From positions 103,977 to 167,976 of the IMG/VR virus record IMGVR_UViG_3300005731_000013: 64,000 nt of DNA, one strand, 5' to 3'. Origin of the DNA: a virus. The position numbers and the translations under genes were made by a program. Positions 32,882-56,589 of the stretch are shown one piece after another. The number at the start of each line of letters is the position of its first letter. The stretch's first letter is position 1. The notes beneath the pieces were generated by a model that saw only the letters and a program-made list of their open reading frames with translations, did no database searches and was not told the DNA's origin.

Positions 32882-33181
32882 CTACATTTGGCCGAGTTTA
32901 TATTGGCTCAAATGTTCTTCGACCAATATACGGTCGACATTGTTTTCAAAAAGGATTTCAATCAATTGTGGTGAATTATCTTTTGAATTAGTAAGCTTGC
33001 GATAATGATACATGCCGGTTATATCATTGTGATATAATCCCAATTCTGATGGTGTAGCCGGTGTATCTTGAGAGTCATATACAATGACTAGTCTGTTGCT
33101 CAACAACTTGGCCATTAGCTCGGTCCCTGCCAGAAGCAGCATATCTGCTTCTGGTATTGATTTATCATTGAACCACCGCAT
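32882..33181 (-). CDS. Hypothetical protein
   Basis: 99 aa; TAATG coupling to the vWA gene. Confidence 0.65.
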   Translation of the reverse strand: MRWFNDKSIPEADMLLLAGTELMAKLLSNRLVIVYDSQDTPATPSELGLYHNDITGMYHYRKLTNSKDNSPQLIEILFENNVDRILVEEHLSQYKLGQM

Positions 33182-34518
33182 TACGATTTTTCATTGTAAT
33201 AAACGGATTGCCCAAATGGCGCCACTGGTTTACCATATTTGGTATGAATAAGGAAAACAGTGTCACAATAGTCGGGATCGCCCCAGCTATTCCAAGGCTG
33301 GCCATCAGTAAACATAATGAATTGATCGGGTTCAATTTCATTATGTTTCATATATTTCCAGTTGGCATCAAAATCAGTTCCGCCGCCACCAGTAATTTCA
33401 TATTCACGAATGTCACGCCCGTCATCGCTTGTGAATTCATCGTAACCAGAAACTTCTGTATCAAAGCACCAAATACGGATACGATAATCATCGTATTGTT
33501 CCATAATGCCAGCTACTTCACTTACAAATTCAGTTAGCATAGTTTGGCTAATCGAGCCCGAAACATCAATAGCCATACAAACATCGATTTGCATATCGCG
33601 GTCCATACCGGGCAGGATCGCACTCATATGCCAACCTTTACGGTTTGGACGCATCCAAGTGAAATTGCTTTTGATCGAACTTTCAATTTGAGCGCGGATG
33701 ATTTCACGCCAATCCATTTGTGGCTCGAGCAGCTCAGTAATCATTCGCTTGATGTTGCCAGGAACATTGCCAGCGCCAGCACTTTGTGCCGCTTGAATCA
33801 ACGCATCTTTCATTTCATGCTGGAGTTGTTTCTTTTCTTCTTCTGTCAACTGTCCAGGACGTCCAGCAAGACCGTCGCCATCACCTTCTTGCCCGTTTCC
33901 AGAACCACCGCCGCCGGCATTATCACCGTTACTGTCATCATTACCATTTCCGTCCATATCAATATGGACATCAATCAAATCACCATCATCTTCAGGAGAA
34001 CCACCGCCATCAGCTTGTTCCATCAAATCATCGTAAACTTCTTCAGTTGTCCAACTGTCATATTTGTGATCAAGGAATGGCTTTACATATGTGATAACAC
34101 GGGCATAATCGCCCTTGTTCACCATTTCAGTGTCCAACATGTTATTGATGACATAGTCACCAGCAATGTTCCACATTTTAGGGTCACGGTCACCACGGCG
34201 CAAGAAGTGTTCATAAATGCAGTGACCAAGTTCATGGCCAACCAAAAACACATTTTCTTTACGATCAAGTTCAGTAATGAACGCAGGATTGTAATAGAAT
34301 TTTTTACCATCAGTTGCCGCAGTAGGGCACCAGTCACGGTTTGAAGGAACCAATGTCAGACGCAATGCCAACTGCCCGAAAAACGGGTGTTTAAACAGCA
34401 AAGACATACGTGCTTTAATTAGCGTATCTTTAGCTTCTGCCAGCATTTCATCAGTGATTTCTTTGGTCATGAAGGACTTGCCTTCATGTTGTGTTACTTG
34501 TTGATTCTTTACGGTCAT
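33181..34518 (-). CDS. Putative metallopeptidase-vWA protein (DUF2201-like)
   Basis: PTAATDG, HELGH (HExxH), WNIAGDYVIN; C-terminal MIDAS DVSGS, GGGGTDF, FTDG. Confidence 0.88.
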   Translation of the reverse strand: MTVKNQQVTQHEGKSFMTKEITDEMLAEAKDTLIKARMSLLFKHPFFGQLALRLTLVPSNRDWCPTAATDGKKFYYNPAFITELDRKENVFLVGHELGHCIYEHFLRRGDRDPKMWNIAGDYVINNMLDTEMVNKGDYARVITYVKPFLDHKYDSWTTEEVYDDLMEQADGGGSPEDDGDLIDVHIDMDGNGNDDSNGDNAGGGGSGNGQEGDGDGLAGRPGQLTEEEKKQLQHEMKDALIQAAQSAGAGNVPGNIKRMITELLEPQMDWREIIRAQIESSIKSNFTWMRPNRKGWHMSAILPGMDRDMQIDVCMAIDVSGSISQTMLTEFVSEVAGIMEQYDDYRIRIWCFDTEVSGYDEFTSDDGRDIREYEITGGGGTDFDANWKYMKHNEIEPDQFIMFTDGQPWNSWGDPDYCDTVFLIHTKYGKPVAPFGQSVYYNEKS

Positions 34519-39695: not shown

Positions 39696-39992
39696 TTACA
39701 CTGAATCAAAATCAAATTTGCTTGCAGGATCAATATCCGCTTTATCAAAATATAATTTGATTAGTAAATAATCTTCATATGTTCTGACTGCAATTTGGTA
39801 TTTGAATCTACCACCAATCCAATCAAACTTAATGTTATTTTCTTCACAAAATTTATGATATTCCCGCCATTTAAAATGGCGTTGATGGTAATCAGTATCA
39901 TTAATGTCATTGAAATTAATCAAAATAGGATACTCATCTAATTTAGCATCTACTATTTGCTTTAAAATATCAGAATTTTCATTATAGGTCAT
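39696..39992 (-). CDS. Hypothetical protein (C-terminal LIKLY motif family)
   Basis: 98 aa; ATGA overlap with the Pth2 gene. Confidence 0.6.
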   Translation of the reverse strand: MTYNENSDILKQIVDAKLDEYPILINFNDINDTDYHQRHFKWREYHKFCEENNIKFDWIGGRFKYQIAVRTYEDYLLIKLYFDKADIDPASKFDFDSV

Positions 39993-40333
39993 CGCAATTT
40001 CAAATGCCCCGTAATAGGAGATAGTTCTTCATGTGTTGCTGGTCCAATTGCTGCACAAGTTAGCGTCGGAACACCGTTGAACTCTGTTCGGCCAGCGTCA
40101 ATAATATCGGCAACTATGATCCCCGCCTCTTTCGCATTGTTCATTACATCATGTAGCGCTTCTTCTGAATCTACAGTGACAGCAATTTTGGTAAAAGGAC
40201 CTGCCAACCATTCTTTAATAGCAGGGTGGTCGATATTTTCCAAAAGTGATTTCATGCTCGCATGAGCAACTTGAACAGCGGTTTTTCCAACCCCCATATT
40301 CAAATCAGATCTTATAACTATCATTTGTTTCAT
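39989..40333 (-). CDS. pth2: Peptidyl-tRNA hydrolase, Pth2 type
   Basis: KQMIVIRSDLNMGVGKTAVQVAHAS...KIAV...IIDAGRTE...TLTCAAIGP...ITGHLKL. Confidence 0.93.
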   Translation of the reverse strand: MKQMIVIRSDLNMGVGKTAVQVAHASMKSLLENIDHPAIKEWLAGPFTKIAVTVDSEEALHDVMNNAKEAGIIVADIIDAGRTEFNGVPTLTCAAIGPATHEELSPITGHLKLR

Positions 40334-42268: not shown

Positions 42269-43090
42269 TTAGGCTAGCGCAAGAAAATTATGCATTTGCA
42301 AATTAACACGATAACCATATTTCAATGCATATTGCCCTGCATATTCATGATTGATACGATTAGCATCAGTATCAAATAACCCGCCTTCCCAGAAACTAGC
42401 AACCTCATCAGGAACCAATTTACCATCAGTTGCATCATCTCCTGACAATTCGCCTTCAATTTTGGTTGTTGGGACAGTGTAATATTTGTTTATTGGACTA
42501 ATGTATACACGAGCAGTATCATCTTCTGTAACCCAATCAGGTATATTATGATATACATCAGTTGGGTCAGCATCAATTAAAAATTTCAAAGCATCTGCAT
42601 GTTTATATGCTTTAGGATGAATTTTTTTATATGATGTAGGATTCCCAGCACTATCTTCATTGCATTTAGGTGAGACCACTATGATAGCTCGATCCTCGAT
42701 ACCGTCAACCCATAGCATTCCATTTGTTTCGATTTGGAAATCTAATAGATCTAAATCAGTTTCTCGCATAAAATCAATGAATGATAGGATATTCTTTTGC
42801 AGCATTGGTTCGCCGCCAGTAATCACAATGTTAGATGTAGATACATTCTCAGGTAATTCTTCAGAAATCTTGTCTGCAATTTCTGAGAATGTCATATCAA
42901 CACCTTGCTCGAAAAAGGCATCACAAAAATGACATGTCAAATTACAATGTGATAGGCGAATGAACACCGCAGGTTTCCCCATCAATGGACCTTCGCCTTG
43001 GATTGTGTAAAATATACTTCGAACTTTTAATACGTCAGTAGCATAATCTTTAAAATATTTCCGCCCTGTAATTGCGTTTGCTCCAAACAA
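42269..43090 (-). CDS. queE: 7-carboxy-7-deazaguanine synthase (radical SAM)
   Basis: IFYTIQGEG...G.PAVFIRLSHCNLTCHFCD, ITGGEPMLQ, IETNG, VSPK, NLQMH. TTG start after AGGAG. Confidence 0.92.
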   Translation of the reverse strand: MFGANAITGRKYFKDYATDVLKVRSIFYTIQGEGPLMGKPAVFIRLSHCNLTCHFCDAFFEQGVDMTFSEIADKISEELPENVSTSNIVITGGEPMLQKNILSFIDFMRETDLDLLDFQIETNGMLWVDGIEDRAIIVVSPKCNEDSAGNPTSYKKIHPKAYKHADALKFLIDADPTDVYHNIPDWVTEDDTARVYISPINKYYTVPTTKIEGELSGDDATDGKLVPDEVASFWEGGLFDTDANRINHEYAGQYALKYGYRVNLQMHNFLALA

Positions 43091-43388: not shown

Positions 43389-43666
43389 ACTAATAATCCT
43401 TGTAGCTTTGCCATAACTGGCCCTTCATCTATAAATTTTACTTTAACATATAAATCTGAATCAGTCAATGGGGTCTCTTGAAGTGTAAACGATGTTTTTG
43501 AAAAACCATATATATTAATTAACAATCGTTCCGTTGCGCCACGAACTTCGTTAAAAGTAAGTGACAATCGTTGTATATCTTCAGAATGAGCTGGACTAAT
43601 ATATATTGTATTTGGATCCTTTTCACATCGTTGCATCTGTGCAGTAATTATATCTTGATTATCCAT
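43385..43666 (-). CDS. Hypothetical protein
   Basis: 93 aa; overlaps the def end. Confidence 0.55.
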   Translation of the reverse strand: MDNQDIITAQMQRCEKDPNTIYISPAHSEDIQRLSLTFNEVRGATERLLINIYGFSKTSFTLQETPLTDSDLYVKVKFIDEGPVMAKLQGLLV

Positions 43667-44210
43667 TTGCGTTGATCAACCGTCTAGCAGCACGTTGCAT
43701 TCGTTTCTTTTGTTTTTTCCTAGCCAAGTCAAGTTTTGGTTTGCTGACTCGATCAGTGAACATAATACCTTGGAGGTGATCAAATTCATGTAGGAAAACA
43801 CGAGCATCCATGCCATATAAAGTTTCTGTTATGGTATTTCCTGCAACATCTTCCCAGCTAGCAGATACAATGTCAGGACGTTTTATTTTTAAAAACAGTC
43901 CTGGCTCGCTTAGACATCCTTCAGTCATCAATACTTTATCAGCACTCAAATGAACAACTTGTGGATTAAACATGGTGACTATTTGTCCTTGTAACTCTTG
44001 ACAAATTACAGCCACATCCAAATTAATTTGATTTGCAGATAACCCAACACCATTATGTGTTCGCATCAGAGTTGTCATATGTGTTTGAACAGCCTGACGG
44101 TATTCTTTATCAACTTGAAAATAGAATACTTGTTTCTCTAAATTTGGATGAGGGGCATATATTAGTTGGTTAGTAGACAAGTCTGTTTTGTATTGTTGTA
44201 ATGTAGTCAT
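43659..44210 (-). CDS. def: Peptide deformylase
   Basis: Three PDF motifs: GVGLSANQ, EGCLS, HEFDHLQG. Confidence 0.95.
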   Translation of the reverse strand: MTTLQQYKTDLSTNQLIYAPHPNLEKQVFYFQVDKEYRQAVQTHMTTLMRTHNGVGLSANQINLDVAVICQELQGQIVTMFNPQVVHLSADKVLMTEGCLSEPGLFLKIKRPDIVSASWEDVAGNTITETLYGMDARVFLHEFDHLQGIMFTDRVSKPKLDLARKKQKKRMQRAARRLINANG

Positions 44211-44220: not shown

Positions 44221-44793
44221 TTATTTAGGAATCCAATGATCTAGGCAGCGAGGTTCATACATACCTACGCTGCCGACCAGTACTCGTTCATCTAATGTTT
44301 CGTCATTGCGTTGCGTTTTTGTGGCAGTTCTGCCACAAACAGTGCATATAGATCGAATCTTAGATATATCGTCACTTAATGCAAGTAAAAGTGCAGTAGT
44401 TTCAAATGGGCGGCCTCGGCTATCTTGATCCAGCCCAGCTGCTATAACATTAACCCCATTTGACAACATGGTATTGACATTATCAATAGTTGCATTTTGC
44501 TCCATGAATTGAATTTCATCCAATACCACAGTATGATAATTATATGGCATTAATGTGTAATTGTCAATTACATGGTCCCAGTTTTTCATTGAAAAACATG
44601 GAAAGCTTAATCTATTATGTGTTTCAATATGTGTTGCACTATATCGAGTATCAATATCTGGTTTAATTACCAAAACATTATGATTACAATGTTTAAGCCA
44701 AAGTATTTCTTGTAGTATGGCTGATGTTTTACCAGCATACATAGGTCCGGCGATTGTTTTAAGTTTTCCTATTGTCAACAGGTTCCTCGTCAT
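44221..44793 (-). CDS. tdk: Thymidine kinase
   Basis: GPMYAGKTS, IDTRY, LDEIQF, AGLDQD...PF, CTVCG...YEPRC. Confidence 0.95.
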   Translation of the reverse strand: MTRNLLTIGKLKTIAGPMYAGKTSAILQEILWLKHCNHNVLVIKPDIDTRYSATHIETHNRLSFPCFSMKNWDHVIDNYTLMPYNYHTVVLDEIQFMEQNATIDNVNTMLSNGVNVIAAGLDQDSRGRPFETTALLLALSDDISKIRSICTVCGRTATKTQRNDETLDERVLVGSVGMYEPRCLDHWIPK

Positions 44794-44992: not shown

Positions 44993-45057
44993 CTAGACGA
45001 TTTTATTGCAATATTACTTATTACATTACTTAAAGTTGCATTCGATCAAAATGTATA

Positions 45058-45080
45058 TGGTGCTGCATAATACAGCACCA
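45058..45080 (-). terminator. Stem-loop after folE (possible terminator)
   Basis: TGGTGCTG-N7-CAGCACCA just past the folE stop; weak U-tract. Confidence 0.5.
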
Positions 45081-45091
45081 CATGATTTATT

Positions 45092-45769
45092 TTATTTGTT
45101 TGAATTTACAATACTCATAAATTCGCCACGCAACGAGGCATCAGTTTTAAATGCGCCACCTAGCTTGCTTGTCACAGTGCTAGACCCAGTGTCTTCTACG
45201 CCACGGCTTTTAACGCAATAATGTGATGCATCTACAACCACTGCAACATTATCTGTGCCAAGAATATACTGCAATGCATGATATACTTGTTCAGTCAAAC
45301 GTTCTTGAATTTGAGGTCGTTTTGCGAAATATTCAACAACACGGTTGATTTTACTTAATCCCAATACTTTATCTTCTGGGATATATCCAACAGTAGCCAA
45401 ACCATCAATTACAACAAAATGGTGTTCACAATTTGATTGCACATTGATATTTCGTTCAATTACCATTTCGTCATATTTCATTTTATTTGCAACGGCTGTG
45501 CATTTAGGAAACGCTTCATAATCAAGCCCCCAAAAGATTTCGTTGACATACATTTTTGCTACTCGCTTAGGAGTTTCTACTAGACTGTCATCATTAAGAT
45601 CTAGTCCAAGGAGTGTCATAATTTGAGTGAAATGTTTTTCGATTTCAGTGATCTTTTCAGTTCGGTTCAGGTCACTGTCAATTGTTGGAGTCTCTACTCC
45701 ACATTCCACTAAATGTTTGTGAATTTGTTTACCCAACTCAGGGTCAGTTTTATTTTTATTAAATGCCAT
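45092..45769 (-). CDS. folE: GTP cyclohydrolase I
   Basis: [41 protein letters not shown]. Confidence 0.97.
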
Positions 45770-45840
45770 AATTTATTCCTTCCTTACACGGTATATGGTT
45801 TTTATATGTTGTTACCTTTGTGTAACAACTCTATTTATGA

Positions 45841-46851
45841 TTAGACTTTTATAATATGTGATTTACTATCAGTAAAATTGATAGAAATCACATTATTAGA
45901 TCCAAACTCATTTTTAAATTCTGGGATCAAAGCAGGATCTAATAAGAACATGACAAACCCGCCGCCACCAGCACCGAGTAATTTGCCGCCATATGCGCCC
46001 ATATCCATGCCCGTATTATATATATCATCAACAGTTGTATTTGTCACGCCATTACTTAAATTTTTCTTCAACGACCACCCTTGGTTGAGTAAGTTGCCTA
46101 ATTCTTTCATGACTTCCATATCGTCACTATCACGTTCTAAGATTGATTTGCCTTCAGCTGCCATATCATACATTGTACTTAGATATGATGCATTTGATCC
46201 TTGTTTGGTATGTTCGATTTGTTCAGATAAAATATTACTTGCATGGCGCACAATATCAGTATACACTAATATCATGCAACTATTTAATGTTGCTGCTCGT
46301 GATGCCGATAATTCTAGAGGTTGGCGGGCAATATCAATTTGATCATTATTCATTGCAAAATCATATCGTGCTAAGCCTCCATATGCTGCATGAGTTTGAT
46401 CTTGAACCCCAACATTTTCATTCAAAATATCTCGTTCTAAACGAATGGCATCAATCGCCAAGGTTTCTGCATTAGATACTGCATCATTATGTTTGAGTTG
46501 ATTGATCAAATTAATAAATCCAACTGTAAAACTAGATGAACTACCGAGGCCTGTCCCACCAGGAAGATCACTCACAGTATAAAATCCAGTTGGAACATCA
46601 TATTTGTGTTCACGCAAGACTTCACGAATGACTGGATGTGAGATTTCATCAATAGTGTCACAATCTTCAACAACACGATAACTGACTCGATATTTTTGCA
46701 TTGCAAATGGAGCCAAATCTGTCGCAGTAGTATATATATATTTGTCAATTGTGCCGCCTAATACTGCGCTAGGATTATTTTGAAAATATTCAGGATAATC
46801 TGTCCCGCCACCAAAAAAACTAACTCGTAATGGGGTTTTACTTATATACAT
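45841..46851 (-). CDS. hddA: GHMP kinase, D-glycero-alpha-D-manno-heptose-7-phosphate 1-kinase-like
   Basis: SKTPLRVSFFGGGTDYP, PGGTGLGSSSS, GVQDQ..AAYGG, GGKLLGAGGGGF; adjacent to gmhA and the gmhB domain. Confidence 0.85.
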   Translation of the reverse strand: MYISKTPLRVSFFGGGTDYPEYFQNNPSAVLGGTIDKYIYTTATDLAPFAMQKYRVSYRVVEDCDTIDEISHPVIREVLREHKYDVPTGFYTVSDLPGGTGLGSSSSFTVGFINLINQLKHNDAVSNAETLAIDAIRLERDILNENVGVQDQTHAAYGGLARYDFAMNNDQIDIARQPLELSASRAATLNSCMILVYTDIVRHASNILSEQIEHTKQGSNASYLSTMYDMAAEGKSILERDSDDMEVMKELGNLLNQGWSLKKNLSNGVTNTTVDDIYNTGMDMGAYGGKLLGAGGGGFVMFLLDPALIPEFKNEFGSNNVISINFTDSKSHIIKV

Positions 46852-48010
46852 TGTTAATTAAATCCTTAAAGCTTTCGAAGATGTTACCTCCGTTAAATTT
46901 GTATCCTGCTATACCTGCATTATTCGCAGCTTGAACATCTATATCTTTATCACCAATCATAAAACTATGATCAATATCAATATTCCATTCAACAAACAAT
47001 TCATTGAGCATACCAGCATTTGGTTTACGTCTAGGGCCATCTTTATCAATACAATATTTGATGCCATCTATATGTCCGCCAACCTTACATAAATTATACT
47101 GCATTTCTCTAAAGAAATCAAGAACATAGTGCTCATTAAAATGACCTTTACTGACACCAGCTTGATTAGATACAATGAATACATAATATCCTGCTTGATT
47201 TGCAGCCAATATAAGTTCTTTAGCCCCATCAATCCATCGCAAATCATCTGGCAGATGAGTATAACCATCATCATGATTTAACGTTCCATCTCTATCTAAA
47301 AACAAGGCAGGCCGCTTGATATGCGATATCAATTCTGTTTGTGCTAATGCATAATCGTCAGGCACACCAATATCAATGAAATATGCGTCTGCATCACAGA
47401 ATGACGCTTGCATTTGATGATCGTGTGCCACTTTGGGCATGATATCATTTTCTAAGGAAATGAATGTATTTGTTGGCAAATCGTGAAGTATACTTTTGCA
47501 AATAGTGTAAACACCACCATTTATATAATTAGGTGTAGCAATATCATCACGTTGGACAAAATTTGTAATCAGGTTACCGTCGAGTTGCAATGTATCATAT
47601 CTAGATGCATTTTTTACATGCCTTACGGCAACTATCATACCAGCCTTAACAGGTGACATCATGCTGGTTAAATCGACATCTAACCAGCTATCGCCATTGC
47701 GGACAAGAAAAAAATCATCCAAATAATCAAGCGCATTTACTAATCCGCCGCCCGTGCCCAATGGAGTATTTTCAATGATTACTTTTATTGTAGCATGGTT
47801 CATTTTTTTATTATGATAATAGTTATAAATTTTGTCGCCCAAATGCCCTGCCAACAAAATTATTTCTTCAAAACCATAACGAACAGTATCTTGAATAAGA
47901 TAATCTAAGAATGGCTTTCCTGCTACATCAAGAAATGGTTTGGGTGTGTTCGCTGTTAAATCACCCAAACGTGTTCCTTTGCCGCCACATAATATGACAG
48001 CTTGTTTCAA
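46838..48010 (-). CDS. Fused heptose-1-phosphate nucleotidyltransferase (HddC-like) and heptose-1,7-bisphosphate phosphatase (GmhB-like)
   Basis: N-terminal LCGGKGTRL...PKP, PLGTGGG, NGDS, FIDIGVPDDY; C-terminal HAD FLDRDGTLN, SNQAG, RKPNAGM, IGDKDID. Confidence 0.88.
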   Translation of the reverse strand: MKQAVILCGGKGTRLGDLTANTPKPFLDVAGKPFLDYLIQDTVRYGFEEIILLAGHLGDKIYNYYHNKKMNHATIKVIIENTPLGTGGGLVNALDYLDDFFLVRNGDSWLDVDLTSMMSPVKAGMIVAVRHVKNASRYDTLQLDGNLITNFVQRDDIATPNYINGGVYTICKSILHDLPTNTFISLENDIMPKVAHDHQMQASFCDADAYFIDIGVPDDYALAQTELISHIKRPALFLDRDGTLNHDDGYTHLPDDLRWIDGAKELILAANQAGYYVFIVSNQAGVSKGHFNEHYVLDFFREMQYNLCKVGGHIDGIKYCIDKDGPRRKPNAGMLNELFVEWNIDIDHSFMIGDKDIDVQAANNAGIAGYKFNGGNIFESFKDLINNVYK

Positions 48011-48567
48011 AATAATGCATCCTCAATAATGGCACAAATCAAATGACCAATTGTGATATGGCATTCTTGAATATGATTAGTTTTATCACTTGGGGCTTTG
48101 ATCATATAATCTGATAATTCATCCAATGCACCAATATTCATACCAGTCAAACCAACAGTATGAATTCCCATTCTTCGAGCAGTCTCGAATGAGTTAATAA
48201 CATTTTTACTATTTCCACTGGTTGACAATCCAATCAAAACATCACCCAATGTTCCAATACCTGACAATTGTCTAGCAAAAACTTCATCATACCCATAGTC
48301 ATTACCAATAGCAGTTAATGCAGAAGTATCTACAGTCAATGCAATAGCAGGCAATGGTTGACGATCTTTCAAAAATCGTCCCATCAGTTCAGCTGCAAGG
48401 TGTTGTGAATCTGCTGCACTACCACCATTACCACAAAAGATTACTTTATTGCCGTTATCTAATGCTTTAATGCAAATATCAGCGACTTTTTGAATATCTG
48501 TTTCAAGTTCTGATAATTTACCAATAGTTTGTTCTGTTGTCTTGATATAATTTTTAATATCAATCAT
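48007..48567 (-). CDS. gmhA: Phosphoheptose (sedoheptulose-7-phosphate) isomerase
   Basis: CGNGGSAADSQHLAAEL, TAIGNDYGY, STSGNSKN, IQECH. Confidence 0.95.
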   Translation of the reverse strand: MIDIKNYIKTTEQTIGKLSELETDIQKVADICIKALDNGNKVIFCGNGGSAADSQHLAAELMGRFLKDRQPLPAIALTVDTSALTAIGNDYGYDEVFARQLSGIGTLGDVLIGLSTSGNSKNVINSFETARRMGIHTVGLTGMNIGALDELSDYMIKAPSDKTNHIQECHITIGHLICAIIEDALF

Positions 48568-49628
48568 TTTGTTTTCCTTACCATATTTTCAATCATAATG
48601 TTAGGTGAAATATATTTTTGAATTTTTGTGATCTGTTTCGATAGCAATGCATCATAATAATCATAGTTATCAATTTTATCTTGAATGAATGCAATAATAT
48701 CATCTTTGTGCTTATCATAAGCATCAAATGATGTTGTCCATTCACTCGGATATTTAAATTCATCAAAATAAATTTCACTATAAGCACAACGATCAGGAAC
48801 AATAGGAATACATCCAACTAACGAACCTTCAATCATACTCATACCTAGATTCTCATGTAATGAACAACTGAAAACAATTTTACTTGATGCAAGTTTTGCA
48901 TAATATTCATCTTTTGATAATTGATGTTTTTGTGTGATGAATACGTCGAATATATCACTTAAATCTTCTGCAATTTCAGGTTGTTTGTCATCATTATAAC
49001 GGTGTGGCCACATAATAGTATCAGTTTTAGTTGTTGTATTGTATTTAGACAAAATGTCAAAAAGATACATATATGGCTGTCCACTGAATACAGCCCTATG
49101 ATGAAATTCAGAAGAAATATTTAAATTCGTTAGGAACATATCACGATGAAATTCACTAGCAAAGTAAGTTGCATCACAAGCATAAAATAAACTGCGTTCA
49201 AAATCATGAGGCCATTCCTCTCGCATTTTATAACCTAAAATGTCACTTGGGTCATATGCACCAGCATGTGCAATGCTATGAATTTTCCAGTTTGTCCCCA
49301 TCAAATCACGCATATACGCAATTTGGATGATTACAGGATTCCAAAAATCTGTAAACAAAAATACAGCGTCATCTGCCACATTACCAGCCTCAAATAATTT
49401 GACAAACTCAAGAACTTGTGAACTTTTCCAATAATTTGTATCAGTAAAATTCAAGAATGCACCACTTGTTGTTGTTTGTGAGTTCTGTTGCCCAGCAATT
49501 GAATAGACAGTGCCGCTATCACCAACACTGTCTAAATAATTTTGGATATAAACAGGAACCTCATCAAACCATTGTTTGGTGTAGCGAGCATCTAATGGCT
49601 CCAATGGAAAAATAATAATGTCTGTCAT
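48564..49628 (-). CDS. Glycosyltransferase, GT-B fold (GT4-like)
   Basis: WPHRYNDDKQPE (R/K donor-binding) and SLHENLGMSMIEG (ExxGxxxxE); immediately downstream of the TGT-like gene. Confidence 0.8.
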   Translation of the reverse strand: MTDIIIFPLEPLDARYTKQWFDEVPVYIQNYLDSVGDSGTVYSIAGQQNSQTTTSGAFLNFTDTNYWKSSQVLEFVKLFEAGNVADDAVFLFTDFWNPVIIQIAYMRDLMGTNWKIHSIAHAGAYDPSDILGYKMREEWPHDFERSLFYACDATYFASEFHRDMFLTNLNISSEFHHRAVFSGQPYMYLFDILSKYNTTTKTDTIMWPHRYNDDKQPEIAEDLSDIFDVFITQKHQLSKDEYYAKLASSKIVFSCSLHENLGMSMIEGSLVGCIPIVPDRCAYSEIYFDEFKYPSEWTTSFDAYDKHKDDIIAFIQDKIDNYDYYDALLSKQITKIQKYISPNIMIENMVRKTK

Positions 49629-49636
49629 AATATTCC

Positions 49637-51202
49637 TTATTTAAAATCGAATAGATTGTTTACAATAGCAGTTGTGTCACGATATCCTTTAACAATACTT
49701 TGGCTATCTAAATACTCTGCTGCACTATCAATTACATCCATTGGCGTTTCACTAGTCAATGCATCTTCAATAATCTGATTTGTGACTAGAATATCTGATT
49801 TAGTCCAATGGTCAAGAATAACAGATTTCAATTTATTTTTTCTGTTCTTCTTCAATTGCATGTAATCTTGTAATTCAATACCGTCAAATGTTTTGCGTGA
49901 TAAATCAACTGTTTGGTTCACTTGCTGCAATGTTTCAATAGTCTTATATACATTATGTGCCATCACATAAAGATATGTTGACGTATCCCAACTAGTTCTG
50001 CCGACCTTGTTGATTTTATTTTTAGTTCCCTGTGACTCCCACAACTCTGCATCATTAAGCAACTCTTTATCACGCAATGCGTCAGATAAATTGAATTCTT
50101 CTTCAATATCCAATAGGTGGTGATGATTTTCTTGTTGCTTGCGAATCCAAGCCTCTTTTAATGCCTCTGCATTTGGAACACCATGTTCATATACACATAG
50201 ATCTCCAGCTGTCAGACGTTGATAGATAGGGCTCATATTAGGCATTGGAATATCACTCCCCGCATACCGCTTATCATCAACAACCGCATTTGAACTTGCA
50301 ATGAATTTTTCATTGTTCAGCAAAATATTATTATAATGTTGCCCCTTAGTGGCCATAATAAATGCGCTTGCTGCATCATAACTTACATTAATGTCAGGGT
50401 TTACAGTGTTTCTCAAAACACGTTGGATCGTAGTATAATAGCTTGCATATTCAACACGACTAACTCCGAGATAATGTAGCCAATCTTGTTCGCCTTGTTG
50501 CATGAGATTATGGTCTCTCATCCATACCAACAATTTAAGAATAACAACTAAATTTTTACTTGTTGATCCTCCGAAACCGAAACCATCAAATGCATAATCT
50601 TTGACATGATCAAACCAATATTTGGCCTCGTCAACAGTTCGTCCTTGCATAGAATTTAGAAATTTAGTCTGATATTTACGATGCTTTAGAAACCATTCAT
50701 TATTGAATTTTGTATAATCCAAACATTGATCAAAACTGGTAATTCCATTTCTTGAACTATATGGTTCACTAGCAGCAAGCGTTGGAATATCGAGTGTCAT
50801 ACTATAATCGGCAGTATGTTCAAGCCAATTCAAAATCTTATGACGAGTGTCATCATTTGTATAAAAATTGTCCCAATCTTGCTTTAGGATACCTGTAATG
50901 ATCTGGAATCCGCCTGAGTCGCCCAAAATAAAGCTATGATTGCGATCACGTTGCTGCACCATTGCTTCTTCAATATCACTTTTTGCAGTATCGAGTTGAG
51001 CATGACCAGCTGAATAGAGACCATATTTGTAACTGAAATAATTATCTTTTGGTTTTAAAAAATCAAGCCCATCGAGTCCTAGTTCAAATCCTGGCGGGCA
51101 CCGTGTATCAGAATTGGCGAGTGTGCCTGTGTAAAAGCCACTGATACTTGGCATAAAGATGCTATAATCTTTTTGGCTGGTATTGAAATCAACCTGCATC
51201 AT
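49637..51202 (-). CDS. tRNA/DNA-guanine transglycosylase-fold protein (DpdA-like)
   Basis: GDSGGFQ, MTLDIP, GFGFGG, HYLG and SYDAAS match the TGT substrate/catalytic Asp motifs. No CxCxxC Zn site. Clustered with folE, queD-like and queE. Confidence 0.75.
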   Translation of the reverse strand: MMQVDFNTSQKDYSIFMPSISGFYTGTLANSDTRCPPGFELGLDGLDFLKPKDNYFSYKYGLYSAGHAQLDTAKSDIEEAMVQQRDRNHSFILGDSGGFQIITGILKQDWDNFYTNDDTRHKILNWLEHTADYSMTLDIPTLAASEPYSSRNGITSFDQCLDYTKFNNEWFLKHRKYQTKFLNSMQGRTVDEAKYWFDHVKDYAFDGFGFGGSTSKNLVVILKLLVWMRDHNLMQQGEQDWLHYLGVSRVEYASYYTTIQRVLRNTVNPDINVSYDAASAFIMATKGQHYNNILLNNEKFIASSNAVVDDKRYAGSDIPMPNMSPIYQRLTAGDLCVYEHGVPNAEALKEAWIRKQQENHHHLLDIEEEFNLSDALRDKELLNDAELWESQGTKNKINKVGRTSWDTSTYLYVMAHNVYKTIETLQQVNQTVDLSRKTFDGIELQDYMQLKKNRKNKLKSVILDHWTKSDILVTNQIIEDALTSETPMDVIDSAAEYLDSQSIVKGYRDTTAIVNNLFDFK

Positions 51203-51266
51203 TTTATTATTCTCCTGATAATATCTATCGAATGATCAAATAATATTGCCCTCGATTTATCTAATG

Positions 51267-51319
51267 ATTATAGCAGGTTAGCAAACCTACGTCAAGTAAA
51301 TTTATTAACCTGCTATAAT
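51267..51319. promoter_or_regulatory. sigma70 promoter for the TGT-like operon, inside a 14-bp inverted repeat
   Basis: - strand TTGACG-N17-TATAAT with extended TG; ATTATAGCAGGTTA (51267-51280) / TAACCTGCTATAAT (51306-51319). Confidence 0.7.
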
Positions 51320-51331
51320 GTATAATTTTAA

Positions 51332-51610
51332 TTAGGCTGGATAGTTTTGAAACATGCCTACATGGATTTTTAGTTTTTTGGGACTACGCATAGGTGACAT
51401 ACGAATATTAATGTCAAATGTATATGCATTTGGACGATTTGTAATGTCAATGCTGAAGTCATAAATCAGCTTTTCTTTTTGAAGATCATTCAAATACGCA
51501 ACAAATAGTTTACGAACTGGCAACGCTGTCCGTCGTTCTAGAATACCGTCCCAAGGCTCGATAATTTTGAGCAAGTCGTATTTGATGTCATTAAGGCTGA
51601 TGTTGTTCAT
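51332..51610 (-). CDS. Hypothetical protein
   Basis: 92 aa; AAGGA SD; between the queD-like and TGT-like genes. Confidence 0.7.
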   Translation of the reverse strand: MNNISLNDIKYDLLKIIEPWDGILERRTALPVRKLFVAYLNDLQKEKLIYDFSIDITNRPNAYTFDINIRMSPMRSPKKLKIHVGMFQNYPA

Positions 51611-51644
51611 TTGTTTTTATCCTTATTAAACAAAGTGGTTAATA

Positions 51645-52058
51645 TTAGTTTGTTGACGCAAAAATCAAAGTTGCACCATTTTCATTGTCTTCACTGACAG
51701 TGATCTCTATGCTGCGCCCTGGATATTTGTCATGAATTGTTTCTGCGAGTTCTTGTGCGATCATTTCACAGCTTTTATAATCCAATTTCAACGTTTGTTC
51801 TGCATAGAGCTTTTCAAGCCATCGTTTGAATTGAATAAACTCAATATCTCGATCGTCATGAAATACTTCAATCGCAACTTTGAAATGAAACATGTGGCGA
51901 TGAGGATAACCCAAAAAGCTGACGTCATATTCATCATTTGTTGCCAACTTTGGGTCTTCCAATGCTGCTGGATATTTATGAATTCCTTCTTTTTGGAATT
52001 GCACAAATATCATACTATTTTTCAAAACCAATTTTTGAGTTGAGTTTTGAGTTGTCAT
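51645..52058 (-). CDS. queD: QueD-like 6-carboxytetrahydropterin synthase (T-fold)
   Basis: GIHKYP...HRHMFH His cluster, RDIEFI, SCEMIA, VSEDNENGA; deazaguanine context. Confidence 0.75.
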   Translation of the reverse strand: MTTQNSTQKLVLKNSMIFVQFQKEGIHKYPAALEDPKLATNDEYDVSFLGYPHRHMFHFKVAIEVFHDDRDIEFIQFKRWLEKLYAEQTLKLDYKSCEMIAQELAETIHDKYPGRSIEITVSEDNENGATLIFASTN

Positions 52059-52082
52059 TTATTAATCTCCTTAATGACCAGG

Positions 52083-52268
52083 TTATAAATTGTAATCTTC
52101 AATTACACGAAATATACTACATAAAGGATATTTGTGTGTAATGCGTTTGTTGTCTTTTTCAAACATAACACAATACATTGGCCCTTTTGTATATGCATTT
52201 ATTACTGTGTCATACACAATTGGTTGACTAGTTTCATTACGATGTATTTCAATCATGTTCGTCTTCAT
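52083..52268 (-). CDS. Small hypothetical protein
   Basis: 61 aa within the operon. Confidence 0.55.
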   Translation of the reverse strand: MKTNMIEIHRNETSQPIVYDTVINAYTKGPMYCVMFEKDNKRITHKYPLCSIFRVIEDYNL

Positions 52269-52524
52269 CCACTATAATTGATTTTATGTTTGTTGTCAAT
52301 AGGTTCGTGTCATCCAAACTGCTTTGCTCATCTAAATTATCAGTATCATTCGACTCTACATCAACCAAGCCTTCACGTTGTGCTCTGGCTTGTTCAATTT
52401 TAAGTATTTCCCATAATTTCCAATCCATTGATTTCAATGTTTCTAGAAGAACTGTTTGAAATTCAGTTTGGGTATTTTCTTGATTTTGCTCGTTATCATC
52501 TATTAGACGAATTTTTTTGACCAT
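52249..52524 (-). CDS. Hypothetical protein
   Basis: 91 aa; SMDWKLWE motif. Confidence 0.65.
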   Translation of the reverse strand: MVKKIRLIDDNEQNQENTQTEFQTVLLETLKSMDWKLWEILKIEQARAQREGLVDVESNDTDNLDEQSSLDDTNLLTTNIKSIIVDEDEHD

Positions 52525-52536
52525 GTTTATTTACTT

Positions 52537-52953
52537 TCATGTATTGAGACGATTGCGCAATTCTGAACTTGAAAAACGATGGTCACGTTTATTGAAATAT
52601 AACTGAATACCACGCTTCTTACATATATCTTTTCCTGTAAAATCTTTATCTTTATATTCGTCACCTAAGATACGAACATCAATTTGCACAAGTGATAAAA
52701 TGTCTTCTAAATCTTGTTCAGTTTCATATGGAATAATTTCATCAACATATTTGACTGCTGATAATTGCACATATCGTTCTACTAAAGTCTGGACAGGTGA
52801 ATTTTTATGTTCTCTGTCCAGACTTGGGTTTACCTGCAACCCCACAATAAGACGATTACATGTTGCAGCTGATTCACGTAACATTGCAATATGCCCTGCA
52901 TGTAATAGATCAAATGCTGAACATGTAAATCCTGTGTTGTAAGGTGCTGACAT
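52537..52953 (-). CDS. Cytidylyltransferase-family protein (TagD/HldE-C-terminal-like)
   Basis: FDLLHAGH (HxGH), LIVGL, ER...L.AVKYVDEI, RFSSSELR. Confidence 0.88.
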   Translation of the reverse strand: MSAPYNTGFTCSAFDLLHAGHIAMLRESAATCNRLIVGLQVNPSLDREHKNSPVQTLVERYVQLSAVKYVDEIIPYETEQDLEDILSLVQIDVRILGDEYKDKDFTGKDICKKRGIQLYFNKRDHRFSSSELRNRLNT

Positions 52954-52954
52954 A

Positions 52955-53701
52955 TTAATGGCTCATTGCAGGTAGGATATAGCGATATAACCCAATACCA
53001 CTGTCAACTTCAATTTGACATGCACCTGCATCACTGAACTGAACTACAATTGTTCCGCCAAGTTTAAGGATATTCAAAAAAGTAACTAGTGGCCAACTCC
53101 ATGTAGTATTCAATGTGCCATCAATATTTTCAGCAAATACACGCCGCCCAACAATACCTCCTTCAGTGCTACCAACTTCAAAAACAAGATTGCCGTCTTC
53201 AGTTTTCACACTAAACGCAGGATCGATCCCACTGTAAATTCCTGCGACTTCACTCAATTGGCCAATCCGTTTGATTGCTGGTTGAATTGTGACATCCCAA
53301 TTCGCTCCTCGGAATTGCGCAACTTTCATTGCTTGATCAATAATTTCTTTACTCATAAATCGATATTGATCTTTATTGCCATCACCATCTTTAAAAATAA
53401 GAGTAGTAGGCATTTCTACATCATTCCGTGTGTCACGGATGATTTCAATTGAAGCATCATCACCTTGATAATTGGAAAGCTTTGTAAGGCTGCTTAATAG
53501 CCCCAAACTGCCCATTCCGAATTCACCATCAAAGTCAGATACAACATCATGAAGCTTCGCTTCTAGAATGACAGTTTTATCACTATCAATTGCTGCTAAT
53601 GTGGTGCCGCCGTCATCATCGCTTATGATTTTGATATTTTCGATAATACCTAGCCCACTTGTATGCTTGATAATATCAAGCAAAACACTTTTAAGATCCA
53701 T
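52955..53701 (-). CDS. DNA polymerase sliding clamp (gp45-like)
   Basis: 248 aa, beta-rich, ends YRYILPA; directly downstream of the polymerase. Confidence 0.65.
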   Translation of the reverse strand: MDLKSVLLDIIKHTSGLGIIENIKIISDDDGGTTLAAIDSDKTVILEAKLHDVVSDFDGEFGMGSLGLLSSLTKLSNYQGDDASIEIIRDTRNDVEMPTTLIFKDGDGNKDQYRFMSKEIIDQAMKVAQFRGANWDVTIQPAIKRIGQLSEVAGIYSGIDPAFSVKTEDGNLVFEVGSTEGGIVGRRVFAENIDGTLNTTWSWPLVTFLNILKLGGTIVVQFSDAGACQIEVDSGIGLYRYILPAMSH

Positions 53702-53856: not shown

Positions 53857-56589
53857 TTAGAAACTGAACAAATCGTTAAAGGTTGTCTTAGTCTCTGCAA
53901 GTGACAGATCCCAATCCAAAGTCCCTAACAAGTTGTTGATCTTTTTAGTTACAATTGTTTCTTCCATCTCATCGTTGTCAAACGGAAGCTCTTTATACCA
54001 ATCAGGAATTCGCTTTTCATCAGTTGGGATACCAATGCTTGTCATTCCCAATGGATTTTGTTTGAGTTTACATACAATAGTTTTCATGCCGTCAGCAATT
54101 TCTAAACTATATTGATCATTATTCATTTCACGCAAACGGTTATAATTGATTGCTGCCATGACATGGCCCACGCCACATTTACCAGTGTTTTTCCATTTTG
54201 CAGTATACATAGTCAAATTGTTGACACGTTTAGGTGTCCCCTTTTCCCAAGGCTGCATTTTTCTAAACTCAGTTCTGAAATCACGAATGCGATTAATGAT
54301 ATGGTCTTCACTGGCGCCTTCTAAAGTCTCCTTCAAAATATCCTTAAGAAAATCTTGCATGTATTCAGGTGTATCACTACGCTTGATTTCCAAGCCCATG
54401 ACTTTGAGTTTGCCACGTTTGCCATCAGTATCTACTCGTGTTCCTTCATCATCATACACCAGAATCCCATAGCGTTTTTTACTAATGAATATACCAGTTT
54501 CACCTACAGTTTCACGAGCAGCGGCAATAATGCGACCATATTTTTCTGGACAGTTATGCGCTTTAGACATATAGCCTGGGAAAGTATCATTTACTTGCTC
54601 ACCAACTGCATCATACAGTTCGACAACTCTATCTTTATCCCATGCGAACTCACCACTTTCAATTTGATCCTTAAACACTGGATATGCACTAAAATATACA
54701 GAATCCGTATCACCGTAAATGATACTTTTTCCTACGTGATTGTATTCACCTGTAAATGCTTCATTACTTGCCGCAGACATATGTCTTGCAATGGTACGAC
54801 CAGTCAAAGTAGTTGATTGCCCGAGACGTTGATCAAAAAATCTACTACCTGGATTCAACAACGCACCATATAGTGAATTCAAATTAATCTTTTTCACAAG
54901 TTGGCGCTTATCCCAAAAAGCAAATTCTTTTTCTTTGCCTTTTTTGCCCCTAAACTCTTTTGCTTTCGCTTGAAGCTCTTTACGTTCAGCATACCAACGT
55001 CCCAACAAACTAGGAACCACACCTTGCTTTTCAAATGTAAAGATAGTGCCATTGCTTGTAATACACCAAGGTTTACCATTATGGAAGATCAAGTCATATA
55101 CTTCAGCACCTGAGCATTCATAACTTGTGCCATCTTCAAAGTCGATGTAAAGCTTTTCAACTTTGTCTCGTGCCATAACAAGTTCGTATTCTTTACATGC
55201 GAACTTACCATCCCAATACTTAGGGAACGGACTGTCTTGTTGTGACTTACCAAAGCGAAATACTTCAGCGAAGTCATTAGGGTTGACTACTTTCTTATCA
55301 AAGTGTTTATAAGTTTTGATGAGATCAGCAAGCCCTTGGTTAGTAAACGTATGCCGAACCTGCCCGACAATACACTCTGGGCTCATGTTGCAAGCCCGTA
55401 GAATTGACGGATACAGAGAGTTAAGGTCCATACTACCAATCCACTTGTGCAACCCTTTAACAGGGTTTGCAACATAGGCACCCGCGGCAGGAATATGTTC
55501 TTGCCCTCTAATCTTGTCAGGAACAATCAACCCACGTTTATGTGCTTCATTGACAATAGCTTGGTCAGTTTGCGCAACAGCGCCCATAGTGGTTTGAAGT
55601 AGAACCGTGTTAGCATGAGCAAGCAGGTTTGCCTGGTCAATATATTGCAACTTATCATCTAGTTTACGTAGAAGGTCAGTATCCTGTATGTTATACTCAA
55701 TAAACTTCTTGAAGTCATTGTTGTATAACTGATCCAAAGTCCCTTCATATTCAACTTTCTTTTCACCTAATTCATGTTCAGTAATGGCATCAAGGCTGTA
55801 ACTGTGCATGACATTGTAGGTGTATTTCATATAGAGTTGCATATAGTCAAGGTGGACACGCCCGACTAAATCGTATGTTTCAGCTTCTTTACCATAAGAT
55901 TCATAAGTCCTACGTTTAGGGCTTTGACCCCACAAGCATAGCTTACGAGTGTAATCTTTACCAAGCACTCGTGCAATACGATTGACAATGTATGGAATAT
56001 CGAAGCCTTCGCTGTTCCAACCTGACAAGATATCGGCGTCGTCCACCAGCTCAATAAAGGTTTGCAGCAACTCTTCTTCGCTATCCATTAGGATAACGTC
56101 GTTAAATGATCCTACAATCCCTTCTGCTTCTTCTTGAGACATTTTTTTAGGCTTAATAACAAGACAAATAGTCTTATCAATCCAATTTAAATGTACTCCA
56201 ACAGCCGTAATAGGATTGAATGGGTCACTTGGAGGTGCAAAACCAAGTTCTTTATTGAAATCAACCTCAATATCAAAGAATCCGATATGCAGATTTGGTG
56301 GTTCGGCATCCATATATTCATCAGCCAAACATCTAAAAGTAACATTCATATCACTTTCAAATAATTTTTTACCAGCAAACATTTTCTTTTCTTTATTAAA
56401 TGCTTTGCTGCTTGCAGTTTGAAATCGTTCTAGTTTGTCACCATAAATGCTAGTAAATTTTCCATTTTGGCTCGGATAATAAAATACATAACGTGCAGGA
56501 TATTGAACAAATTCCCGCTCACCATCACTATTTCGTTCTACAACATTTACAATATCACGATTTCTATCATGAAATGCATCAATATAAAT
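53857..56589 (-). CDS. Family B DNA polymerase (T4 gp43-like); probable ATT start
   Basis: Exo motifs FFDIEV, GWNSEGFDIPY, YNIQD; pol motifs DLNSLYPS, KINLNSLYG, YGDTDS, KKRY. The frame is open 69 codons upstream of the listed ATG, to an ATT 7 nt after GGAG. Confidence 0.95.
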   Translation of the reverse strand: MYIDAFHDRNRDIVNVVERNSDGEREFVQYPARYVFYYPSQNGKFTSIYGDKLERFQTASSKAFNKEKKMFAGKKLFESDMNVTFRCLADEYMDAEPPNLHIGFFDIEVDFNKELGFAPPSDPFNPITAVGVHLNWIDKTICLVIKPKKMSQEEAEGIVGSFNDVILMDSEEELLQTFIELVDDADILSGWNSEGFDIPYIVNRIARVLGKDYTRKLCLWGQSPKRRTYESYGKEAETYDLVGRVHLDYMQLYMKYTYNVMHSYSLDAITEHELGEKKVEYEGTLDQLYNNDFKKFIEYNIQDTDLLRKLDDKLQYIDQANLLAHANTVLLQTTMGAVAQTDQAIVNEAHKRGLIVPDKIRGQEHIPAAGAYVANPVKGLHKWIGSMDLNSLYPSILRACNMSPECIVGQVRHTFTNQGLADLIKTYKHFDKKVVNPNDFAEVFRFGKSQQDSPFPKYWDGKFACKEYELVMARDKVEKLYIDFEDGTSYECSGAEVYDLIFHNGKPWCITSNGTIFTFEKQGVVPSLLGRWYAERKELQAKAKEFRGKKGKEKEFAFWDKRQLVKKINLNSLYGALLNPGSRFFDQRLGQSTTLTGRTIARHMSAASNEAFTGEYNHVGKSIIYGDTDSVYFSAYPVFKDQIESGEFAWDKDRVVELYDAVGEQVNDTFPGYMSKAHNCPEKYGRIIAAARETVGETGIFISKKRYGILVYDDEGTRVDTDGKRGKLKVMGLEIKRSDTPEYMQDFLKDILKETLEGASEDHIINRIRDFRTEFRKMQPWEKGTPKRVNNLTMYTAKWKNTGKCGVGHVMAAINYNRLREMNNDQYSLEIADGMKTIVCKLKQNPLGMTSIGIPTDEKRIPDWYKELPFDNDEMEETIVTKKINNLLGTLDWDLSLAETKTTFNDLFSF

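Follow-up and report, generated by a model that had tools for sequence, protein, structure and literature searches.

A cluster of phage genes that combines 7-deazaguanine genes, a glycosyltransferase (GT), and a set of nucleotide-heptose genes was found in IMG/VR virus record IMGVR_UViG_3300005731_000013. The window, by which we mean the whole stretch of 64,000 nucleotides analyzed here, is the last 64 kb of this 167,976-bp record, which at a CheckV completeness of 46% represents a fragment of a jumbo phage. Throughout the locus, the genes for family B DNA polymerase (PolB), the deazaguanine enzymes, GT, the heptose enzymes, FolE, and the QueE-like enzyme are on the minus strand (Table 1). In our judgment the chances are evenly balanced that this cluster gives rise to a heptosylated 7-deazaguanine in phage DNA, by a DpdL-type system to which a glycosylation step has been added. 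A broader reading, to which we would give slightly less credence, is that in phages of several lineages (marine jumbo phages and cultured phages of Pseudomonas, Acidovorax, Xanthomonas, and Sinorhizobium) guanine gives way to a glycosylated 7-deazapurine that bears a lineage-specific sugar. At the level of gene linkage the interpretation is well supported; its chemistry is a proposal.

In the route that we propose, GTP would be converted to 7-carboxy-7-deazaguanine (CDG) by FolE, by QueD (from a gene in another part of the genome or from the host), and by the QueE-like enzyme, and CDG would then be processed by DpdL, for which decarboxylation to 7-deazaguanine is the published proposal. A protein with the fold of tRNA-guanine transglycosylases (TGT) would exchange guanine in the phage DNA for the deazapurine, to which the GT4-like enzyme would add a manno-configured sugar. 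The donor would here be a nucleoside diphosphate (NDP)-D-glycero-D-manno-heptose, which GmhA, the HddA-like kinase, and the GmhB-HddC fusion, all translationally coupled, would form out of sedoheptulose-7-phosphate, and the product would be a bulky heptosylated deazapurine shielding the DNA from restriction. The steps up to base exchange are proposed from family assignment and published analogy; we infer the glycosylation step from gene linkage, and infer also its DNA target, its timing relative to insertion, the nucleotide carrier, and the retention of the sugar on the final base.

Linkage of the glycosyltransferase to deazaguanine genes

A search of IMG/VR with GT alone returned 307 relatives, the best 80 of which were taken with 10-kb flanks; core co-occurrence was counted in the 54 of these loci that extend for at least 5 kb on both sides. 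DpdA is present in 53 of the 54 (52 of the window type and one of the type found in Acidovorax phage ACP17), DpdL in 52, FolE in 53, and all three together in 51, and the GT-DpdA-DpdL-FolE core has a median span of 5.45 kb. The order of these genes is not fixed: DpdL-DpdA-GT-FolE occurs in 31 loci, DpdA-DpdL-GT-FolE in 17, and DpdL-GT-DpdA-FolE in 12. Shared ancestry inflates the co-occurrence count because most of the contigs come from one jumbo-phage lineage, but the rearrangements of gene order and the recurrence of the same linkage in cultured phages argue for selection on the linkage itself. These families are abundant in metagenomes, where DpdA-like clusters number over 1,000 and GT clusters over 2,700.

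While the DpdA-GT pair is constant among these relatives, the sugar-pathway genes vary, a pattern that the preliminary description of this DNA had raised. Within the best 80 loci, the heptose set is limited to the window and its nearest GT relatives (L002-L004 and L010-L012). In 28 loci (e.g., L018:9193-10005 and L015:8673-9485), the gene directly upstream of GT encodes a 270-aa protein in which the cytidylyltransferase-like domain seen in the window, similar to domain II of rfaE, is fused to a PMI-type cupin; this protein may constitute a compact module for NDP-mannose or possibly NDP-heptose. Genes near GT also encode a phosphomannomutase (13 loci), a DegT-type aminotransferase (14 loci), or a UDP-glucose/GDP-mannose dehydrogenase (12 loci), and one lineage carries a second GT4 (Glycos_transf_1, 82 bits) with a metallophosphoesterase just upstream of DpdL-GT (L037:8186-9178, L038-L041, L045, and L046), which suggests a disaccharide or a further elaborated modification. 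Because D-glycero-D-manno-heptose is manno-configured, a switch from a mannose-type to a heptose donor between sister lineages would be chemically modest.

The survey also brought up a phosphoribosyltransferase gene (PF00156, phrog_8995) less than about 1 kb from GT in 31 of the 80 loci (e.g., L005:14985-15509 and L001:15946-16380) and a gene for a YhhQ/Vut_1-type queuosine-precursor transporter near GT in 13 of the 80, both of which hint at the handling of free deazapurine bases. Neither was found in the 168-kb record, which holds about half a genome.

The heptose genes and the glycosyltransferase as a module

For each of the four heptose activities, the best NCBIfam match of the enzyme is the corresponding member of the pathway. 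GmhA matches TIGR00441 at 198.8 bits, just below the cut-off of 209.45 (PF13580, 99 bits); residues 2 to 222 of the fusion protein match NF049965 (HddC) at 139.1 bits with a cut-off of 300, and residues 233 to 367 match PRK08942 (GmhB) at 118.5 bits with a cut-off of 178; the HddA-like kinase matches NF049969 at 131.6 bits with a cut-off of 600. For the complete heptose pathway of the preliminary description, all four activities are represented by best family matches, all of which fall under the equivalog cut-offs. The same four activities make GDP-D-glycero-alpha-D-manno-heptose for S-layer and capsule glycans, but here they are phage-encoded, with HddC and GmhB fused, and are coupled to a GT4-like enzyme in a putative DNA modification operon. 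The cytidylyltransferase-like protein further upstream resembles domain II of rfaE, a heptose-1-phosphate adenylyltransferase, with a TIGR02199 match under the cut-off, and a standalone homolog is found in 14 of the 80 GT loci.

The genes in this part of the cluster are tightly packed. Only 8 nt separate the DpdA-like gene from GT; GT and GmhA overlap by 4 nt (with an ATGA at the GT stop), GmhA and HddC-GmhB by 4 nt, and HddC-GmhB and HddA by 14 nt, in agreement with the coupling from GT to HddA that had been noticed earlier. Together with a promoter-like site in the 129-nt gap 5' of the DpdA-like gene and a terminator-like hairpin after FolE, the top terminator candidate in a scan of the region (both are consensus matches only), this spacing suggests that the genes from DpdA-like to FolE make up a single unit of six, with GT and the heptose genes enclosed between two deazaguanine genes.

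Phylogenetic trees separate the histories of these genes. The four GTs that are linked to heptose genes group together as one clade (SH-aLRT 99), and on the GT data the topology of DpdA is rejected (p-AU 2e-26). For the DpdA-like proteins, the tree places the window protein with loci that carry the cupin fusion and no heptose genes, and a heptose clade is rejected (p-AU 6e-13), while FolE and a 248-aa open reading frame (ORF) next to PolB show yet other histories. The GT tree tracks the heptose genes and not the adjacent DpdA-like gene; GT and the heptose genes behave as one exchangeable module in a mosaic region, the pattern expected of a donor-specific transferase and its donor pathway.

The same mosaicism could be read in another way, namely that the heptose genes and GT serve the glycosylation of virion proteins or of the host surface and that they lie among deazaguanine genes only because recombination is frequent in this part of the replication module. 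The usual destinations of GDP-glycero-manno-heptose are S-layer, capsule, and lipopolysaccharide glycans, the FolE, 248-aa ORF, DpdA, and GT trees all disagree, and a 13-kb cluster of glycosyltransferase and radical-SAM genes lies beside the tail genes of the same phage. The enzyme family of that cluster occurs both with and without heptose genes nearby. We nevertheless consider this explanation improbable. All three of DpdA, DpdL, and FolE accompany GT in 51 of the 54 loci, with three gene orders, and the association recurs in T4-like phages of unrelated lineages. The heptose genes share translational coupling with GT, within a unit that has the DpdA-like gene at one end and FolE at the other, and family searches found no signal peptide, membrane, or structural gene in that unit.

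Related clusters in cultured phages

GT occurs with deazaguanine genes in at least three unrelated lineages of cultured phages. The T4-like phage ACP17 has the order QueD-FolE-x-DpdA-GT-DpdL-QueE (x being an intervening gene), Xanthomonas phage X1 has FolE..GT-DpdA-DpdL-QueE with a GT that is only 24% identical, and Sinorhizobium phage Phosso has DpdL-GT-x-FolE..QueE, with its DpdA-like gene far off in the genome. PA5oct and ten related Pseudomonas jumbo phages carry DpdA-like-GT-DpdL..QueE. As the DpdA of ACP17 is only remotely like that of the window, the GT-DpdL pair travels with different transglycosylase lineages. DpdL without GT exists, for example in Cellulophaga phage phiST; full-length GT relatives without DpdL were not seen among cultured phages.

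The PA5oct cluster is of particular interest here, since the DNA of this phage has been studied. It resists five restriction enzymes, from which the authors infer that the modified base is a G within a GA and/or GG motif, and the phage is a target of END nucleases, enzymes that sense the hypermodification of DNA (PMC12191111). Only QueE and a PTPS were named in that work, with no DpdA or GT (PMC12191111), so that the base exchange enzyme and the glycosyltransferase of PA5oct seem to have gone unrecognized. In the PA5oct record (MK797984.1), positions 11995 to 15140 hold three genes labeled "hypothetical" (EST35_0316 to EST35_0318) whose products are a TGT-fold DpdA-like protein, a GT, and a DpdL. 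PA5oct and the Paride group (Wroclawvirus) share with the window a syntenic PolB, a homolog of the 248-aa ORF, and the DpdA-like, GT, DpdL, and QueE genes, with identities in PA5oct of 37% for the DpdA-like protein, 37% for GT, and 65% for DpdL; unlike the window, PA5oct has no heptose genes and only a short epimerase-like ORF nearby.

DpdL and the proposed route to the deazapurine base

The gene between the two small ORFs and the conserved 92-aa ORF had been described as queD-like, a label that we have dropped because its 137-aa product gave no PTPS match in Pfam (PF01242, up to an E value of 10) or among PDB sequences. It carries LxxxHRHxF, which in place of the CxxxHGH of QueD is the signature of DpdL (Hutinet, Cui et al., NAR 2023, PMC10516641). 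The motif reads L49-GYP-H53-R-H55-M-F57, with L49, H53, H55, and F57 invariant in 16 homologs; the protein is 60% identical to the ACP17 homolog ASD50405, and a tblastn search of phiST matched positions 46850 to 47146 (33% identity, 1e-6), within CGPG_00067, the DpdL of that phage. The gene is therefore dpdL. DpdL is a QueD/PTPS paralog without the catalytic Cys and has been proposed to be the CDG decarboxylase that leads to 2'-deoxy-7-deazaguanosine (dDG) in phiST, while expression of dpdL and dpdA from ACP17 or phiST in E. coli yielded no dDG, for which the authors suggested that additional enzymes might be required (PMC10516641). With DpdL instead of QueD as the T-fold enzyme, and by analogy with the published proposal, the base given to the transglycosylase may be 7-deazaguanine rather than CDG. 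The central idea of the preliminary description, to the extent that GT is part of the deazaguanine system and uses a heptose made by the phage, is strongly backed by comparative genomics (co-occurrence, variable sugar genes, and the GT tree), but in this respect its chemistry needs correction.

The FolE, QueD, and QueE set that had been credited to the window is likewise incomplete, as QueD is missing. In the 168-kb record, in which at 46% completeness absence is not established, no match was found to PF01242 or with the QueD of a relative, nor to PF06508 for QueC. A true QueD is encoded elsewhere in two relatives (G001 and G002), in the heptose-carrying contig G001 about 40 kb from the cluster, and QueC above the cut-off was found in none of four relatives, one of them a 100% complete genome of 322 kb. 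As the relatives have QueD but no QueC, the pathway ends with CDG and DpdL, like that of the DpdL phages described in the literature, and in the 168-kb record, too, DpdL occurs with DpdA-like, FolE, and QueE proteins and no QueC was found. The FolE score lies above the NF006824 cut-off of 202 bits; for the QueE-like protein, QueE models of NCBIfam are the top matches, at 57 to 84 bits, all under the cut-off.

The window FolE is only 29 to 46% identical to the FolE of its closest relatives, yet 63 to 80% identical to that of more distant loci and of ACP17. Judging from sequence, the folE gene of the window is one that has been replaced in situ.

The cluster resembles the dDG system of phiST (FolE, QueD, QueE, DpdL, and DpdA3; PMC10516641) in having FolE, QueE, DpdL, a TGT-fold enzyme, and no QueC, and in lying by a polymerase gene. 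It differs in that phiST has no GT or sugar-nucleotide genes and carries plain dDG, in that DpdA3 is not detectably similar to the 521-aa protein discussed below, and in that QueD is not in the cluster here.

The DpdA-like transglycosylase

The 521-aa protein, previously described as TGT/DpdA-like, owes this identity to its fold only. No match was found in Pfam (including PF01702), NCBIfam, or PHROGs, nor among PDB sequences, whether it was searched singly or as a profile of 25 sequences. The AlphaFold (AF2) model (pLDDT 87) is a TGT-type (beta/alpha)8 barrel, which Foldseek aligns to Zymomonas mobilis TGT with an E value of 1.8e-8 and a probability of 1.00. In the VIA structural comparison, Z scores were 19.8 for ArcTGT, 18.9 for QTRT2, 18.1 for TGT, 16.8 for DpdA (7ui4, the DNA preQ0 insertase), and 13.4 for Cap10, with generic barrels at 11.6 or below. 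D95-S-G-G-F-Q100 is invariant in 25 homologs and aligns to the DSGGLQ of ACP17-type DpdA; D276 (SYDAAS), a candidate for the second catalytic Asp (the nucleophile, D280 in Z. mobilis TGT), is also invariant in these homologs and, in sequence alignment only, pairs with D263 (SYDSTT) of ACP17-type DpdA. An hhalign comparison of the two families gave 87% probability and an E value of 4e-6, with little shared beyond the catalytic motifs. DpdA3 of phiST (CGPG_00065) had no significant hhalign match to either DpdA alignment (2.5% probability against the 521-aa family), and we have for this reason not named the protein DpdA3. The CxCxxC...H zinc site of tRNA TGTs was not found in the 25-sequence alignment, which has a single invariant Cys (C160). 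The protein is, according to the model, a divergent DpdA-like TGT-fold transglycosylase without the zinc site, and is predicted to exchange bases in DNA.

Since the fold is slightly nearer to tRNA TGTs (ArcTGT 19.8, TGT 18.1) than to DpdA (16.8), it might be argued that this protein and GT act on tRNA of the phage or its host and produce there a glycosylated base resembling queuosine. QTMAN, which transfers alpha-mannose from GDP-mannose onto queuosine in tRNA, is a precedent for an alpha-mannosylated 7-deazaguanine in RNA. We regard a tRNA target as very improbable, given that the zinc subdomain of tRNA TGTs is missing from the 521-aa protein and that in every lineage the genes neighbor PolB, within the module for DNA replication. 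Moreover, the virion DNA of PA5oct resists cutting at G-containing restriction sites (PMC12191111), and DpdL-type phages with measured DNA have dDG in that DNA (PMC10516641).

The glycosyltransferase

The GT-B identity assigned earlier to the 354-aa protein is borne out by its fold and by the motif E259-NLGMSMI-E267, an EX7E motif in the C-terminal domain in which both Glu residues are invariant in 25 homologs. The AF2 model (pLDDT 87) has two Rossmann domains, and Foldseek finds GT-B matches with E values of 1e-9; VIA Z scores are 23.2 for sucrose-phosphate synthase (SPS), 23.0 for BshA, 22.0 for glycogen synthase, and 21.3 and 20.4 for PimB' and PimA, two enzymes that use GDP-mannose, over 290 to 316 aligned residues. 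By sequence, GT scores 16.1 bits against Pfam Glycos_transf_1, under the gathering score of 26.4, and 2.5e-7 against the phrog_4356 glycosyltransferases, and a GT profile found no match among PDB sequences. We take the protein to be a GT4-like, retaining-type GT-B enzyme and, as far as a model allows, predict that it is the heptosyltransferase of the deazaguanine system.

Many GT4 enzymes with small-molecule substrates score above the T4 AGT-DNA complex (1y6f), which ranks 29th in Foldseek and 37th in VIA (Z 17.3), and a tetrahydrobiopterin alpha-glucosyltransferase reaches Z 19.4 and Foldseek rank 9. GT could accordingly be imagined to act on the free deazapurine base or on a pterin, giving a soluble glycoside or a transient intermediate and leaving no sugar in virion DNA. 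Besides the fit to BshA and to the tetrahydrobiopterin enzyme, FolE, a PTPS-like T-fold protein, and a GT-B enzyme make up the skeleton of cyanobacterial pterin-glycoside synthesis, and the phosphoribosyltransferase (31 loci) and the YhhQ-type transporter (13 loci) point to a traffic in free bases. DpdL, the tightest and most universal neighbor of GT across lineages, is itself predicted to be a free-base enzyme (PMC10516641).

Such an activity strikes us as unlikely, though less so than a surface or a tRNA target. A TGT-fold base exchange enzyme accompanies GT in all but one of the 54 complete loci, DpdL is without the Cys needed for PTPS/QueD chemistry (PMC10516641), and it is the DNA of PA5oct itself that is modified at G and sensed as hypermodified (PMC12191111). 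TGT enzymes are able to insert bases with large C7 substituents, such as queuine, so that glycosylation of the free base would still give glycosylated DNA.

The acceptor and other difficulties

Several points weigh against a heptosylated 7-deazaguanine in the DNA of this phage. The most serious is the acceptor, which is left unexplained if DpdL does make 7-deazaguanine, as C7 of that base offers no hydroxyl, amine, or carboxyl group for GT4-type O-glycosyl transfer; in phiST, where DpdL is present and GT absent, the DNA contains plain dDG (PMC10516641). The phage is known from its genes alone, and the modified G of PA5oct from restriction resistance and nuclease targeting. The fold of GT cannot separate a DNA acceptor from a small molecule (Z 19.4 for the pterin enzyme and 17.3 for AGT), and the acidic character of both GT and the DpdA-like protein (isoelectric point of about 5) is uninformative on DNA binding. 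No heptose enzyme attains its NCBIfam equivalog cut-off, and the glycosyltransferase and radical-SAM enzymes encoded near the tail genes might be another consumer of the heptose, or an alternative sink for activated sugars in general. The groups compared in the topology tests were named after the identity table had been seen, and, as the 80 loci belong mostly to one broad jumbo-phage lineage with shared PolB-248-aa ORF synteny, the co-occurrence of GT with the deazaguanine genes is partly inherited.

There are ways out of the acceptor gap. DpdL may do something else in phages that carry GT, GT may act on CDG or another intermediate before insertion, or the sugar may be linked to a ring nitrogen, the exocyclic amine, or a ring carbon. 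The unexplained acceptor suggests to us either that DpdL does more than decarboxylate, supplying a handle for the sugar, or that a C- or N-glycoside is formed on the deazapurine ring. A hydroxymethyl-pyrimidine acceptor was also considered and found unsupported, as the only gene with a ThyA fold is that of a true thymidylate synthase next to DHFR.

Relation to known systems and significance

To our knowledge, the glycosylated DNA bases described so far are all pyrimidines, and the 7-deazaguanine bases described in DNA all have small substituents. A literature search on deazaguanine with glycosyltransferase, heptose, or hexose, and on the PA5oct modification, returned no description of a glycosylated deazaguanine in DNA. 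The nearest parallels come from two directions. In the T-even phages, the GT-B enzymes AGT and BGT decorate a noncanonical base, 5-hydroxymethylcytosine, against restriction, and other glycosylated pyrimidines occur in phage DNA, the donor sugar differing from lineage to lineage; the base predicted here is a purine analogue introduced by base exchange, whereas those bases are pyrimidines synthesized as nucleotides, the donor here would come from a phage-encoded heptose pathway, and the likeness of GT to AGT is no closer than that to generic GT4 enzymes. Mannosyl- and galactosyl-queuosine, made by QTMAN and QTGAL, are 7-deazaguanine derivatives glycosylated within a nucleic acid, and the heptose proposed here is manno-configured like the mannose of QTMAN, but these enzymes act on animal tRNA, where the sugar is accepted by the cyclopentenediol of queuosine, a group that the pathway in the window cannot make.

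If the proposal is right, glycosylation of a purine-type base would be seen here for the first time in DNA of any kind, and a sugar-bearing deazapurine would represent both a new DNA chemistry and a new route to evade restriction and CRISPR. The sugar cassettes, which differ by lineage and include the heptose pathway of the window, would then suggest that purines bear a modular "sugar code" whose parts can be exchanged. A glycosylation step could also explain the failure of dpdL and dpdA to yield a product by themselves in E. coli (PMC10516641), as well as the modified G of PA5oct, a phage relevant to therapy (PMC12191111). The cultured relatives make the prediction directly testable by mass spectrometry.

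Gene layout and other features

All genes lie where the preliminary description had placed them, in the minus-strand order that it gave, with QueE about 2 kb beyond FolE, and family searches agree with the identities proposed for the polymerase, the cytidylyltransferase-like protein, and FolE (Table 1). The 248-aa ORF had been called a clamp; it had no match in family searches, and only its Phosso homolog is so annotated.

Table 1. Genes and candidate signals at the locus, in order of transcription
Feature	Position in window	Strand	Evidence or remark
Family B DNA polymerase (PolB)	53857-56382	-	Family searches
248-aa ORF, putative clamp	52955-53701	-	Clamp label is the annotation of the Phosso homolog only
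Cytidylyltransferase-like protein, 138 aa	52537-52953	-	PF01467, 47 bits; TIGR02199, 68 bits; phrog_7878, 6e-32
Two small ORFs, 91 aa and 61 aa	52083-52524	-	No Pfam match
DpdL, 137 aa	51645-52058	-	LGYPHRHMF motif; homology to phiST and ACP17 proteins
Conserved 92-aa ORF between DpdL and DpdA-like genes	51332-51610	-	Homologs in 31 loci
Sigma-70-like promoter candidate	51267-51295	-	TTGACG-17-TATAAT with extended -10 TG; 11/12 matches
Predicted DpdA-like TGT-fold transglycosylase, 521 aa	49637-51202	-	Predicted fold; DSGGFQ
Predicted GT-B, GT4-like glycosyltransferase, 354 aa	48564-49628	-	Predicted fold; E259-x7-E267
GmhA, sedoheptulose-7-phosphate isomerase	48007-48567	-	TIGR00441, PF13580
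HddC-like nucleotidyltransferase fused to GmhB-like HAD phosphatase	46838-48010	-	NF049965, PRK08942, PF00483
HddA-like GHMP kinase (heptose-7-phosphate 1-kinase)	45841-46851	-	NF049969; GHMP N- and C-terminal domains
FolE, GTP cyclohydrolase I	45092-45769	-	NF006824, 324 bits
Intrinsic-terminator-like hairpin directly after FolE	45055-45083	-	13-bp stem, 5 GC pairs, T-rich tail
Thymidine kinase	44221-44793	-	Small ORFs also between FolE and QueE
Peptide deformylase	43659-44210	-	Between FolE and QueE
QueE-like radical SAM enzyme, divergent (CDG synthase family)	42269-43090	-	phrog_2076, 1.7e-43

Homologs of the 92-aa ORF, 45 to 78% identical, occupy the same position in the loci that have them, and although no family match above threshold was found in Pfam or PHROGs, this ORF may be an unrecognized component of the deazaguanine system. 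The 61-aa ORF matches phrog_10299, a family of unknown function, and 12 related loci share the 91-aa ORF. The operon region as a whole had no megablast match among 50,697 phage records, so that no close cultured relative was found there.

Positions 16205 to 29343 of the window hold the 13-kb cluster near the tail genes that was mentioned above. Its SPASM/radical-SAM enzymes (24335-27533) have the auxiliary-cluster domain N-terminal to the radical-SAM core, and such N-terminal-auxiliary paralogs number 5 in this record and 10 in the relative G001. Elsewhere in the window, positions 39989 to 40333 encode a PTH2-type peptidyl-tRNA hydrolase and positions 33181 to 34518 a DUF2201 metallopeptidase/VWA protein with an AAA ATPase adjacent.

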